The notes under the pieces: model-generated
The model's input: only the letters and a program-made list of their open reading frames with translations
Told to the model about the DNA's origin: nothing
The model's database searches: none
Sequence record: NC_070982.1
DNA: 64,000 nt
Origin: Escherichia phage vB_EcoP-101114UKE3
Direction: 5' to 3' (one strand)
Part shown: positions 46,098-57,727 of the stretch, piece after piece
Position numbering within the stretch: position 1 is the first letter of the stretch
How the letters are laid out: each line of letters starts with the position of its first letter
Made by a program: the position numbers and the translations under genes

Positions 46098-46720
46098 AAT
46101 GATTCCACCAACTCTACATTATATGATGACAGGTCTGAAGAAATATGCTTGAACTTCTCCAGAAGGTTTAAAGATTGACGACCATTGTCGCCATAACCAG
46201 CTTCAAGAAGCACGTTTCCAACGTAAGCCCCTTTGTAATAAACTTTTCCATCGACAGGATTGATATAGATGAAACGAGTAACCAACCCTTCAAACTCTGG
46301 ATTAAACAGGTTATACACCAAATCACCCGGAATCGAACGTCCGAGAGAAGGTGGAGTACCACGAAGTTTATTCCCCATCAAGCCTTTAGCTCGCTGACGA
46401 ACAGGGTTGATATGGGTCCAGCTCACCACGTTATTACCATGCTGAAGGTATCCTACATCTGGAGACTCCAGAATGAGGCTGTGATCAAACACTGGGATAT
46501 TACTAACAATCTGACGTTCAAACTGACCTTCGGAGTTTTTAGTCCAGCGTTCCGCCTCAAACACTAAAGACATTTCAGCGTCGTGTGAGTAGTCGTCGAT
46601 ATCAAAGTTACCTTGCTGACGAACATCAAGCACATATAGAGGGAGGTTTTTACCATCAGGTGATCGCTGAGCAATCCATGTTCCACAATAATAGTGTTGA
46701 AAATCTCTTAACAAGCTCAC
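46094..46720 (-). CDS. hypothetical protein (cassette member)
   Basis: 208-aa ORF translationally coupled within cassette. Confidence 0.4.
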   Translation of the reverse strand: MSLLRDFQHYYCGTWIAQRSPDGKNLPLYVLDVRQQGNFDIDDYSHDAEMSLVFEAERWTKNSEGQFERQIVSNIPVFDHSLILESPDVGYLQHGNNVVSWTHINPVRQRAKGLMGNKLRGTPPSLGRSIPGDLVYNLFNPEFEGLVTRFIYINPVDGKVYYKGAYVGNVLLEAGYGDNGRQSLNLLEKFKHISSDLSSYNVELVESL

Positions 46721-46729
46721 AATATCACC

Positions 46730-47536
46730 TTATACAATCTGGAGTTTAGAGGAGAATTTATCTGCTTCTTTAACATCGTTACTGTTGATGATGTTGTGAA
46801 GCTTTTCAATTGGAAGGCGAGAGTGAAGTGACATCAATACTTCCATATCACAGCCTTGAACAACCTTATCAACTTGCTCATAAACAAACTTGCGGGTTGA
46901 CTTCTCGCCAATCCAGAAGTTAGAAAGAGAACGATATTCAATACCGTAATCCTTGTAACGAATGGCAGAAGCCTTTCCGTATAACTCTTTACGACGAGTG
47001 TCTTTATCCATGATTACAGCTGGCAAGGACAGGAAATAATCACACAACACACCCAACATCATTTGAGTTTGTCGAGTAATCTCTAAAGTCCCGGAGACAC
47101 CAAGGTGCACATGACCCCCAGCAGTACGCAAACCCTTATTAGTTGCGACCGGTGAAGGGTTCTTTTGTCCAGTGAAGGCATTGAAATCAGGAGTACAACC
47201 AAATACAAAGGCTGACGGATGGAAAGATTCAAGCTCTTCTGAAGTGAACACATGAGAGCTAATCCCAAGTGCTGCCTCCATGCCACGTTCATTGAGAACT
47301 TTGTTAGTCAGATCAATACCACGCTGAATGTTATCATCAAACGCTTCAAACCCTTCCTGTGGGTTAATATCAAACTCGGCCAGAACGTTGTCTTCTTGAA
47401 GACGAACATCAGGAGCCAGATCAATTTTATTGTCTTTAGAACAGCCCAGCTTACCAGCCACAGAGGTGATAATACCGGAAGCAGTACGAACAAACATTTC
47501 AGGGTCAGAGCCAATAAGGAAAGCGCGCTTAGTCAT
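46730..47536 (-). CDS. COOH-NH2 ligase-like protein (second amidoligase)
   Basis: start MTKRAF at 47536 with GGAG SD; GSDPEMF ... GCTPDF ... GGHVHLG motifs. Confidence 0.5.
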   Translation of the reverse strand: MTKRAFLIGSDPEMFVRTASGIITSVAGKLGCSKDNKIDLAPDVRLQEDNVLAEFDINPQEGFEAFDDNIQRGIDLTNKVLNERGMEAALGISSHVFTSEELESFHPSAFVFGCTPDFNAFTGQKNPSPVATNKGLRTAGGHVHLGVSGTLEITRQTQMMLGVLCDYFLSLPAVIMDKDTRRKELYGKASAIRYKDYGIEYRSLSNFWIGEKSTRKFVYEQVDKVVQGCDMEVLMSLHSRLPIEKLHNIINSNDVKEADKFSSKLQIV

Positions 47537-53137: not shown

Positions 53138-53464
53138 TCACCACTCCTTACCCTTTGTTGTTACAGAGCCACTACACTGTACACCACGGGAGATAAAGTC
53201 ATAACGCGACCAATCACCTTGTGTCTCCATATCACGCCCTACATAAGCCTTCTCATCAACAGCACCGCCGTTGGAACAAGAAGCACCAGCATAACGCATA
53301 TCAATTTCACCACTAGGAATCTTCTCCCCGCTGTGCCAACGGGAAACACAGACACCTTCTACCGATAATGCACACCATCCATCAGGACGATGCTGTACGC
53401 AGCCTGTAAGAGCTACACAGGCGATAAAGATACAGGTTAAGGTAATTACACCACCCCAGCTCAT
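53138..53464 (-). CDS. secreted protein/lipoprotein candidate
   Basis: signal peptide with LTGC lipobox-like motif. Confidence 0.5.
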   Translation of the reverse strand: MSWGGVITLTCIFIACVALTGCVQHRPDGWCALSVEGVCVSRWHSGEKIPSGEIDMRYAGASCSNGGAVDEKAYVGRDMETQGDWSRYDFISRGVQCSGSVTTKGKEW

Positions 53465-53601
53465 AATCCCTCCTGAAGCGCCTTACGGCGGCTATCTCGC
53501 CAAGCCATCCATAGGTAGGTTTTAAGTTCTTCTCTTTCTTCTTCGCTGAACAAAGGAGAAGTAAAGATATCATCGAACCACTCATTAAACTCAGGGGTCA
53601 T
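53461..53601 (-). CDS. small acidic protein (46 aa), replaces track ORF 53382..53585
   Basis: AGGAGG SD 4 nt before ATG 53601; TGA overlaps ATG of downstream gene. Confidence 0.35.
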   Translation of the reverse strand: MTPEFNEWFDDIFTSPLFSEEEREELKTYLWMAWRDSRRKALQEGL

Positions 53602-53740
53602 AAACCCTCCTATTTGATTTGGTGGACTATCTGGAATCGAACCAGAAGCTCACTAAGAAAGCAATTCCCACTGTTATAAAAGCACTTGCCTCAACAGGGA
53701 TACACTAACTTTGGTGCCGCACCCATACTAGCCCTAAATG

Positions 53741-53816
53741 TGGTGCGCCCTACAGGACTCGAACCTGTAACCAATAGCTTAGAAGGCTACTGCTCTATCC
53801 GTTGAGCTAAGAGCGC
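53741..53816 (-). tRNA. tRNA-Arg(UCU): tRNA-Arg (anticodon UCU), CCA encoded
   Basis: hand-folded cloverleaf: 7-bp acceptor, D arm GCTC/GAGC, anticodon loop CTTCTAA, T arm ACAGG-TTCGAGT-CCTGT, discriminator A plus CCA. Confidence 0.85.
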
Positions 53817-53824
53817 GGAATTGT

Positions 53825-54034
53825 TTAACTGAAGATACGCAAGGCCACATCATGACCAATATGACCGGGAACTTTATGCTGCTCTATTTTCAAGCAGCGC
53901 TTACAGATACGAGATACACGAGACTCTTTTCTCTCTACTGGAGTGTCTTTAGCGTGAGTGATGTGTAGGTTTTCAGTGATCACCCACTCGTGTTTACATC
54001 CAGAATCTTCGGGCTTTTTCTTACGAAAGAACAT
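53825..54034 (-). CDS. small zinc-ribbon protein (triplet member)
   Basis: start MFFRKKK; CKHEW ... CKRC. Confidence 0.4.
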   Translation of the reverse strand: MFFRKKKPEDSGCKHEWVITENLHITHAKDTPVERKESRVSRICKRCLKIEQHKVPGHIGHDVALRIFS

Positions 54035-54042
54035 AACACCTC

Positions 54043-54207
54043 TTAGATCAGATCTGTTTTCTTGTGCAGACCACACACTTTACAGCGAGAGTAGATACGC
54101 AACCCTTGTCGCTCTCTGTCAGTAAGTTTATTTGTGATCGTCAGTTCATAAGTATGAAGATCTTCCCACTCATGGAAATGAAATAGACGTTTGAACCATT
54201 TGATCAT
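54043..54207 (-). CDS. small zinc-ribbon protein (triplet member), not in ORF track
   Basis: 54 aa MIKWFKRLFHFHEW...CKVCG; near-duplicate N-terminus of 54217..54402. Confidence 0.4.
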   Translation of the reverse strand: MIKWFKRLFHFHEWEDLHTYELTITNKLTDRERQGLRIYSRCKVCGLHKKTDLI

Positions 54208-54216
54208 AATGATTCC

Positions 54217-54402
54217 TTAGATTACATCACGATGACTAATATCACCACACACCTTACACTGAATAATGTAACGTGTGCCCTTGTCATTGTTCCCATCTGA
54301 ATCCGTATAGACCAGAGGACGGGTGTTAATAATCTTCCAATCATGACAATGGAAGACACGCTTTAGCCACTTAATCATATTAAGCACACGCCGGTAATTC
54401 AA
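54217..54402 (-). CDS. small zinc-ribbon protein (triplet member)
   Basis: MIKWLKRVFHCHDW...CKVCG. Confidence 0.4.
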   Translation of the reverse strand: MNYRRVLNMIKWLKRVFHCHDWKIINTRPLVYTDSDGNNDKGTRYIIQCKVCGDISHRDVI

Positions 54403-54637
54403 TTAACTGAGGAGTACGACAAGGGCCATCCTCATACACACCTACCAGTGTTGGCATGTAAGGCCCAGCGCACTGGTATTCATCGAACAGTTCATTGTAA
54501 GTAGGCTTCCACTTCCAAGCCCACACATAACCCATTCGATCAATGGCAATGTAACGAGTGTTCAGAGGAACCTGCATCATCACATCACCAACTGCTATTA
54601 CTTTCGTAATAACTGCTGCTCGGAAGTTTGTCTTCAT
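54380..54637 (-). CDS. hypothetical protein
   Basis: 85-aa ORF. Confidence 0.35.
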   Translation of the reverse strand: MKTNFRAAVITKVIAVGDVMMQVPLNTRYIAIDRMGYVWAWKWKPTYNELFDEYQCAGPYMPTLVGVYEDGPCRTPQLIELPACA

Positions 54638-56360: not shown

Positions 56361-56533
56361 TTGATTAACACCAAATCAGTACGACGTTCGAAGGAAGGGG
56401 AGGATTCACCATTCCACTGAACAAGATAACAGAGAACACCATCAATCGTTGTTCTCCGACGAATAACACCTGTAACAGTTCCACCAACAAGACGAACGGT
56501 GTCGCCAACGGTAAATTTAACCTTTGAGCGCAT
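56357..56533 (-). CDS. small hypothetical protein
   Basis: start MRSKVKF with AGGAG SD. Confidence 0.35.
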   Translation of the reverse strand: MRSKVKFTVGDTVRLVGGTVTGVIRRRTTIDGVLCYLVQWNGESSPSFERRTDLVLIK

Positions 56534-56822
56534 CTCCTGTTTCCTCATTCTGGCGTTTAATTTCTTCAGTGAGTTGCTTATTAAGATCTTGAATACGCTT
56601 AATCTCCCAACCCAAAGAAGCCAAACGATCGTTACGTGCTTCGATTTGTTCCTGCATTTTAAGTAATTTGGAACGAACATCAGCATTAAAAACTTCTTCT
56701 TGCTTAAGAAGGAACTCGTAACGACGCTTCCAGCTTGCTGATTTATTTCTTAAAATAATAAACCCTAGAGTAGAAACCGTTACAGTGAGTACGAAAAGGA
56801 ACTTATAAACCTCTAAAGACAT
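56517..56822 (-). CDS. membrane-anchored coiled-coil protein
   Basis: N-terminal TM then helical E/K-rich region. Confidence 0.4.
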   Translation of the reverse strand: MSLEVYKFLFVLTVTVSTLGFIILRNKSASWKRRYEFLLKQEEVFNADVRSKLLKMQEQIEARNDRLASLGWEIKRIQDLNKQLTEEIKRQNEETGDALKG

Positions 56823-57462: not shown

Positions 57463-57489
57463 TAAAAAAGCCCCATCCGAAGACGGGGC
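57463..57489 (-). terminator. intrinsic terminator (TTCG hairpin plus U6)
   Basis: minus-strand gccccguc-uucg-gauggggc (G-U only on this strand) then uuuuuu. Confidence 0.55.
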
Positions 57490-57727
57490 GACCTGAAAGA
57501 GTGAACATGACCTCACTCATTTAAGAATCCTCGTAAAGACTCTTAAAAAAGAGGCCTCGTTAAAGGCCCGGTCAAATGACCATCCAATAGGGATTGAACC
57601 ATGCCAATGATTCACAAAGGGAGTTCCCTTTAGGTATCACTAGCTACGCAAAAAGCCGCACAAAGGCGGCAGACAAAGACGCTCAAGAAGAGCGTCATAG
57701 TAGTTGACCACTGGTCCAGAAGAGGGC

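Follow-up and report, generated by a model that had tools for sequence, protein, structure and literature searches.

Several phage proteins of 60-70 amino acids (aa) that carry four Cys/His ligands are known to act as binders and not as enzymes, among them Ogr of phage P2, Delta of phage P4 and Com of phage Mu, whose partners are the alpha subunit of RNA polymerase or the mom mRNA. LUZ24 gp4 (Mip), T7 Gp2 and Gp5.7 and phiEco32 gp79 are tiny early proteins that bind host proteins stoichiometrically and are encoded in variable clusters (PMC4635203; PMC12276001). Here we describe three consecutive small genes, P1, P2 and P3 (Table 1), located on the minus strand of Escherichia phage vB_EcoP-101114UKE3 (NC_070982.1) beside a tRNA-Arg(TCT) gene, where an earlier note made from the DNA letters had placed them; the window, i.e. 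the whole stretch of DNA analysed, comprises 64,000 nucleotides (nt). As a whole, these genes are best explained as encoding early, metal-stabilised binding modules of zinc-ribbon type that would be directed at the host, a reading to which we assign a probability of about 0.5.

The stretch matches Escherichia phage vB_EcoP-101114BS3 at 100% identity (MZ234015.1; Kuravirus, Gordonclarkvirinae, phiEco32 group), and a window coordinate corresponds to the coordinate of this record plus 9800. The earlier note had reported the middle open reading frame (ORF) as missing from the ORF list; it is indeed absent, but this is only an effect of the 60-aa cut-off of that list, and the GenBank record already annotates P1, P2 and P3 as the hypothetical proteins 101114BS3_087, _086 and _085. 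The packing of the genes is operon-like, the start of P1 being coupled to the stop codon of the upstream 85-aa gene with one base between them (TAA-T-ATG), while the Shine-Dalgarno sequences of P2 (AAGGA, spacer of 9 nt) and P3 (AAGAGGTG, spacer of 8 nt) overlap the stop codons of P1 and P2 respectively. A promoter and terminator scan returned nothing convincing within the three-gene block. The ORF list stretches P1 to a TTG at 54402, yielding 61 aa, and this start had been adopted before; the stop end of that assignment holds, but the start is most likely the ATG at 54378, since it is the one annotated in GenBank, follows the upstream TAA after a single base and coincides with an initial Met in 99 of the 129 members of the family, the TTG being unlikely.

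Table 1. Position and properties of the three genes and of the two features that flank them in the window.
Feature	Position in the window	Strand	Product	Family	Candidate ligands	Remarks
P1	54217..54378	-	53 aa, 6.3 kDa, isoelectric point (pI) 9.0	PHROG 8294	H10, H12, C41, C44	
P2	54043..54207	-	54 aa, 6.7 kDa, pI 9.4		H10, H12, C42, C45	P1 paralogue
P3	53825..54034	-	69 aa, 8.1 kDa, pI 9.6	PHROG 13426	C13, H15, C44, C47	
tRNA-Arg(TCT)	53741..53816	-				First base 8 nt past the P3 stop codon; co-oriented
85-aa early gene	54380..54637	-	Function unassigned			Left edge of the variable cassette, upstream of P1

Synonymous changes predominate in all three genes when orthologues from eight to ten related phages are compared, the ratio of nonsynonymous to synonymous substitution rates (dN/dS) being 0.06-0.37 for P1, 0.05-0.76 for P2, where substitutions are few, and 0.02-0.20 for P3, with most values between 0.03 and 0.4. 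As these ratios are joined by ribosome-binding sites or a coupled start and by many homologues, P1-P3 are regarded as real genes, and the substitution pattern indicates that all of them, the middle ORF included, are protein-coding and under purifying selection. The contrary view, that one or more of these ORFs and especially the 54-aa P2 are unexpressed chance frames, draws on their very short length. It is nevertheless extremely improbable, because P2 has a correctly spaced Shine-Dalgarno sequence, orthologues in about 30 phages, at 94-98% identity and with synonymous changes in excess, a clear paralogue, 138 family clusters and all four ligand residues intact.

The co-occurrence of a shared motif at this locus is real and non-random. 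A regular expression describing it matched three of the 985 six-frame segments of the window, all of them adjacent, while over 100 shuffles the strict form gave no matches and the loose form a mean of 0.08; furthermore, a hidden Markov model (HMM) of the P1/P2 family matched P1, P2 and P3 only among the 567 ORFs of the window. P1 and P2 are genuine tandem paralogues, 41% identical (E = 1e-13), and, as had been quoted, their N-termini (MIKWLKRVFHCHDW in P1, MIKWFKRLFHFHEW in P2) are nearly the same. Both proteins cover the entire PHROG 8294 HMM (profile positions 1-56 of 56), with E-values of 8.8e-25 for P1 (residues 1-53) and 1.7e-17 for P2 (residues 1-54). Searches with single proteins in a word-indexed database returned just two to three close matches, and an exhaustive HMMER search seeded with a four-sequence profile retrieved 138 clusters at 50% identity (E <= 1e-3), nearly all consisting of stand-alone proteins of 47-70 aa.

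Conservation was evaluated on an alignment of 129 sequences of the P1/P2 family, in P1 numbering. Column 10 is occupied by His in 108 sequences and by Cys in 17, column 12 by His in 127, column 14 by Trp in 120 and column 34 by Gly in 110, while Cys is found in 128 sequences at column 41 and in all 129 at column 44, and Gly follows at column 45 in 123. The resulting family motif is [H/C]-x-H-x-W, separated by about 25-31 residues from C-x-x-C-G. The earlier note had proposed the pattern [CF]-x-H-[DE]-W; the shared pattern exists, but its register does not fit P1 and P2, where the sequence is H-[CF]-H-[DE]-W. Column 11, the position given there as [CF], is highly variable across the family and is not a ligand, the conserved residue being the His or Cys located two positions before the invariant His. 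Because the interchange of His and Cys is limited to column 10, it has the signature of a metal ligand.

The structures of P1 and P3 were predicted with AlphaFold (AF2), using the 129-sequence alignment for P1 and 25 homologues for P3. The P1 model, with a mean predicted local distance difference test score (pLDDT) of 89.5, consists of a helix at residues 3-8 and strands at 14-25, 31-41 and 47-52, and the P3 model (mean pLDDT 84.8) of strands at 17-27, 35-44 and 50-56 and a helix at 61-68. The two models agree in that the conserved His precedes beta1 by two residues, beta2 ends with the first Cys and beta3 begins three residues past the second Cys. With good confidence, P1 and P3 are thus predicted to share a three-stranded, zinc-ribbon-like core with the same ligand register, the extra helix being N-terminal in P1/P2 and C-terminal in P3. 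The four ligand positions expected of a zinc ribbon are conserved, with His or Cys in 125 of the 129 P1/P2-family sequences at the first position and the C-x-x-C-G of the second knuckle in 128-129 of them. In the P3 family H15, C44 and C47 occur in 25 of 25 homologues, and a Cys is found 2-6 residues before H15 in all full-length members. The first half-site has the form [H/C]-x-H, with one-residue spacing, in the P1/P2 family and C-x(1-5)-H in the P3 family. The top Foldseek match for P1 was the NrdR zinc ribbon, with 24% identity over 41 columns, and was not significant. The description of the proteins as small and zinc-ribbon-like has therefore held up, in view of the predicted three-stranded sheets and of the four candidate ligands conserved across 129 and 25 homologues, and P1-P3 are very probably real metal-ribbon-like mini-proteins.

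The place of P3 is less simple. It matches the PHROG 13426 HMM with E = 2e-37 (residues 2-69, profile positions 3-74 of 78), is 95-99% conserved across 46 Gordonclarkvirinae records and has homologues at 40-50% identity in unrelated Vequintavirinae myoviruses, including CR3, CR8, CR9, POP15 and F1M1E. A local triplication of a single ancestral gene, of which P3 would be the most diverged copy, would account for the adjacency of the three genes, for the core topology and ligand register that the predicted models of P1 and P3 have in common and for an alignment of the two families by hhalign in which all four ligands fall in register (P = 1.5e-3). The P1/P2-family HMM, moreover, finds P3 as the only other ORF of the window, at 17.6 bits, and matches six of the 25 members of the P3 family at 12-19 bits. 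We nonetheless consider such an origin improbable. The hhalign probability is just 16-17%, the reverse search with the P3-family HMM matches one of the 129 P1/P2-family members, and in BLASTP P3 is borderline with respect to P1 (E = 5e-3) and P2 (E = 1e-3). P3 also belongs to a separate PHROG, is about 24% identical to P1 as against 40-50% to its Vequintavirinae homologues, and is missing in phiEco32, SU10 and Paul, although these phages carry a P1/P2-family gene; this absence, together with the Vequintavirinae homologues, suggests that P3 was acquired separately. Of the triplet put forward before, the P1/P2 pair stands and the assignment of P3 to the same family is borderline: at the level of sequence the locus reads as a tandem pair with a neighbouring look-alike, for which triplication is not demonstrable, and P3 is possibly a very distant relative of P1/P2 with the same core. 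Invariant in the P3 family are also R42 and the motif E51-x-H53-x-V55-x-G57-H58, which spans beta3 and the loop after it. This motif, which is without counterpart in the P1/P2 family, might bind a second metal, supply the fourth ligand in place of another residue or serve as a surface for interactions.

As regards function, these proteins are proposed to be binders and not enzymes, because they are too small for enzymes, basic, and built on a conserved scaffold with a variable hairpin tip. Their net charges are +3 (P1), +4 (P2) and +6 (P3), and the P1/P2 family has a mean charge of +3.3, with 91% of its members positive. The tip of the beta1-beta2 hairpin (positions 23-33) shows a column entropy of 3.59 bits, against 1.8-2.5 elsewhere, and receives most of the internal insertions; the differences among P2 alleles, for instance in ECBP2, fall there as well. 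In P0093, a natural 182-aa protein from a metagenome, three domains of the family are fused through Pro-rich linkers, each domain being matched separately by the HMM (independent E-values of 1e-6, 3e-13 and 3e-11), with first-site spacings of C-x-H, H-x-H and C-x-x-H, and its three-domain architecture fits modular, possibly multivalent, binding units.

The genomic position bears on the time of expression. In phiEco32, SU10 and YF01 the syntenic right-arm cluster is of the early class, is read leftward from sigma70 promoters, encodes mostly hypothetical proteins and is considered a host-takeover region (PMC8948821; PMC9965538; PMC4281155). The SU10 orthologue is gp105, inside the early coding sequences 69-125, and by synteny P1-P3 are assigned an early-class location. 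We propose that the three mini-proteins would be translated separately from the early, leftward, sigma70-driven cluster of a phiEco32-like podovirus, each adopting a zinc-ribbon-type fold of three antiparallel strands. This sheet would probably be stapled by one Zn2+, held by the [His/Cys]-x-His before beta1 and by the Cys-x-x-Cys(-Gly) knuckle in the beta2-beta3 turn, with P1 and P2 packing an N-terminal amphipathic helix on it and P3 a C-terminal helix instead. Such stoichiometric, metal-stabilised modules may dock on a host macromolecule, either protein or nucleic acid, early in infection; the beta1-beta2 hairpin would set their specificity, paralogues and alleles might cover different targets or host variants, and the role would be host takeover or counter-defence. 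That P1-P3 act as host-directed accessory binders is proposed tentatively, as a claim that falls slightly short of even odds.

The segment between a conserved gene of about 84 aa and tRNA-Arg is a variable cassette that contains one to three of these genes in each relative. P1, P2 and P3 are present together in this phage, IME267 and Bas91; EK010 and ECBP2 carry a divergent slot-1 allele followed by P2 and P3, SU7 has P2 and P3, O18-011 and 172-1 have P1 and P3, and phiEco32, SU10 and Paul have a single slot-1 gene without P3. Among the 89 records with any P1/P2-family member, a P2-type copy occurs in 34 and two copies in 28. Comparison of EK010 with the window returned identities of 100% for the upstream gene, 98% for P2 and 99% for P3, but just 54% for slot 1, while O18-011 and Bas91 present the converse situation, with 91-92% identity in slot 1 and only 65% in the upstream gene. 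The cassette is thus a mosaic, with allele swapping, gain and loss among relatives, and such exchange is typical of accessory host-interaction genes. Some of these genes are unannotated in the reference records, namely the P2-type gene of SU7 (NC_070980.1; locus L010 1328-1492) and the slot-1 gene of ECBP2, which has a 5-aa deletion in the hairpin; the P3 gene of ECBP2, ECBP2_0103, is annotated from a truncated start, as a protein of 52 aa (both ECBP2 genes in NC_018859.1; locus L015 1148-1318 and 1501-1710).

Mosaicism also bears on the main rival to host-directed binding, according to which P1-P3 would be nucleic-acid-binding regulators of the phage's own expression, acting on phage DNA, mRNA or RNA polymerase so as to time transcription or translation, in the manner of Ogr, Delta and Com or of the DNA-binding zinc ribbon of NrdR. 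Zinc ribbons often contact nucleic acids or RNA polymerase, all three proteins are basic (pI 9.0-9.6) as is most of the family, the top structural match, although non-significant, is the NrdR zinc ribbon, and the early operon that contains the genes belongs to a phage whose sigma-switching programme is complex. Set against this, near-identical phages differ in copy number and in alleles, and phiEco32 lacks P3 and carries a single copy; presence/absence and allele swapping of this kind would not be expected of a core regulator that acts at fixed cis sites. Pfam gave no match of the proteins to Ogr_Delta, Com or NrdR, and the family is found in unrelated phages with different transcription strategies. 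Self-regulation therefore appears unlikely, though it is the alternative that we take most seriously.

A further explanation is suggested by the tRNA flank of the cassette. Genes for HNH or homing endonucleases are located beside tRNA-Arg in O18-011 (locus L012 1767-2183), Bas91 (locus L016 1745-2167) and Paul (locus L017 2229-2741), between P3 and the tRNA or just beyond it, and two of them overlap the 5' end of tRNA-Arg in the annotation. Such insertions mark the tRNA flank as an insertion hot spot, and other small genes are also inserted by the tRNA in some relatives. As HNH enzymes have C-x-x-C zinc sites, P1-P3 might be remnants or accessory DNA-binding pieces of mobile HNH cassettes. This origin is very improbable and was rejected for want of profile or fold support: no Pfam HNH match was obtained for the proteins even at E <= 10, and the fold searches showed nothing HNH-like or His-Me-finger-like. 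In addition, the genes are under purifying selection, the family keeps its full length of 50-57 aa, and no endonuclease accompanies the three genes in the window or in most relatives.

The association with a tRNA gene, recorded in the earlier note, is true locally but does not extend to the family. Each of 15 distant viral contigs has one copy of the family gene, with no tRNA closer to it than 3.5 kb; only two of the 15 have any tRNA, located 3.6-4.9 kb upstream of the family gene. Linkage to tRNA as a family trait was consequently rejected, and the tandem arrangement and the tRNA neighbour are local features, the tRNA not being functionally tied to the family. The distant members are found among small ORFs in replication/nucleotide-metabolism (non-structural) modules of unrelated phages, with DNA ligase, DnaB, PhoH, SF1 (superfamily 1) helicases and ClpX-like proteins as neighbours.

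Among cultured phages the P1/P2 family is essentially limited to Gordonclarkvirinae, with two genuine occurrences outside, namely in Synechococcus phage B3 (gp145, 52.9 bits) and in Pseudomonas phages of the genus Bruynoghevirus, where the gene lies in the early region (FJK gp12, 41.9 bits). A search for related loci with the subfamily nearest the window returned Kuravirus-type contigs only. When 185,579 bacterial genomes, each representing one species, were scanned with a pattern, a single full-length relative was found, in Methylobacterium; given this single occurrence, the family, which is virus-borne, is not a bacterial one. No Pfam, NCBIfam or PADLOC model matches P1, P2 or P3 meaningfully, the sole PADLOC match being a spurious Cas10 fragment for P2 (E = 0.026), and a Pfam scan of the 129 P1/P2-family members gave no match at E <= 0.01. 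A PDB profile search detected no sequence relative, with nothing below E = 0.45, and a literature search returned nothing on the P1, P2 and P3 genes. In LUZ24, gp12 (NC_010325.1; locus L042 601-1260) is annotated as a protein of 219 aa whose first ~41 residues are those of a family member, after which it reads into downstream sequence, without C-x-x-C-G, at a place where FJK and others have a separate 55-aa gene; this is likely a frameshift or fusion in the reference genome.

Several observations weigh against early, host-directed zinc-ribbon modules. Zinc binding by P1-P3 is deduced from sequence and predicted topology, and two canonical zinc knuckles were found in neither family, the [H/C]-x-H arrangement of the first half-site departing from the canonical knuckle. 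The basic charge would fit nucleic-acid binding and self-regulation as well as host targeting, and P3, being 95-99% conserved where present, looks less like an arms-race gene. No recurring partner gene was found across the 15 distant viral contigs, which accordingly give no pointer to a target, and the ORFan screen of LUZ24 covered gp1-11, gp13 and gp17, not gp12.

Small early phage proteins represent the main reservoir of unexplored host-takeover and anti-defence functions, and the P1/P2 family, with at least 138 sequence clusters, has yet no Pfam model or solved structure. Near-isogenic natural phages that differ only in the cassette, such as EK010 (slot 1 only) and SU7 (without P1), offer ready material for function finding. 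A bolder and rather unlikely possibility is that the P1/P2 family, perhaps with P3, forms a widespread unnamed class of viral metal-stapled mini-binders, built on the non-canonical [His/Cys]-x-His plus C-x-x-C-G site and with the hypervariable hairpin as specificity loop. Were this true, the tandem paralogues, the swapped alleles and the three-domain fusion would represent a diversifying repertoire against host defence or housekeeping targets, and podoviruses, myoviruses and cyanophages would have in common a small modular scaffold for anti-defence or takeover. If instead the family is an ordinary one, the value of these results is limited to annotation, i.e. to a definable domain, corrected starts and the genes missed in SU7 and ECBP2.

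Some features in the surroundings of the three genes were also recorded. The tRNA-Arg(TCT) gene is unannotated in MZ234015.1, yet annotated in relatives, and if it is co-transcribed, processing by RNase P would set where the P3 message ends on its 3' side. A spacer of 139 nt separates tRNA-Arg from the following gene (53461-53601), and within it, at 53620-53685 (minus strand), is a second, degenerate element that resembles tRNA-Arg(TCT), with GGTTCGATTCC in the T-arm and CCACCA at the end. It was matched by ARAGORN at relaxed thresholds only, had no Rfam match at E <= 1 and folded no better than shuffles, and it may be a decayed duplicate tRNA. Within the 6 kb scanned, 11 intrinsic-terminator-like hairpins were found versus 4.5 expected, four of them in ~230 bp at 57470-57696 (minus strand), where they overlap three annotated ORFs of 29-39 aa (101114BS3_100 to _102); this segment may be a regulatory spacer, similar to the early promoter/terminator region described for SU10 (PMC4281155), rather than coding. 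Finally, the 101-aa ORF at 56517-56822 (record 46717-47022), labelled 'DNA helicase' both here and in IME267, is implausibly short for a helicase, and the label is probably an over-annotation or indicates a fragment.

In comparison with what has been described, P1 and P2 are full-length members of PHROG 8294 and P3 of PHROG 13426; as these families have no function, structure or name, membership in them explains nothing about mechanism. LUZ24 gp4, T7 Gp2 and Gp5.7 and phiEco32 gp79 have no sequence or fold kinship to P1-P3, and none of them is a zinc ribbon. Ogr and Com, unlike P1-P3, use two Cys pairs, and these regulators control late genes, whereas P1-P3 are of the early class by synteny, are accessory and lack a Pfam match to Ogr/Delta or Com. 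Differently from NrdR, P1-P3 are proteins of 53-69 aa with neither an ATP-cone nor any other domain, and without a Pfam or NCBIfam match. With the classical zinc ribbons (the N-terminal domain of NrdR, TFIIS, TFIIB, bL32 and eS27) they have in common a basic character, a size of about 40-50 residues and, as predicted for P1 and P3, a three-stranded antiparallel sheet; the turn between beta2 and beta3 holds a C-x-x-C-G knuckle, and another pair of ligands lies on the N-terminal side of beta1. P1-P3 are real but ordinary examples of the many small proteins that phages make early; they belong to uncurated families and have a slightly unusual ligand set.

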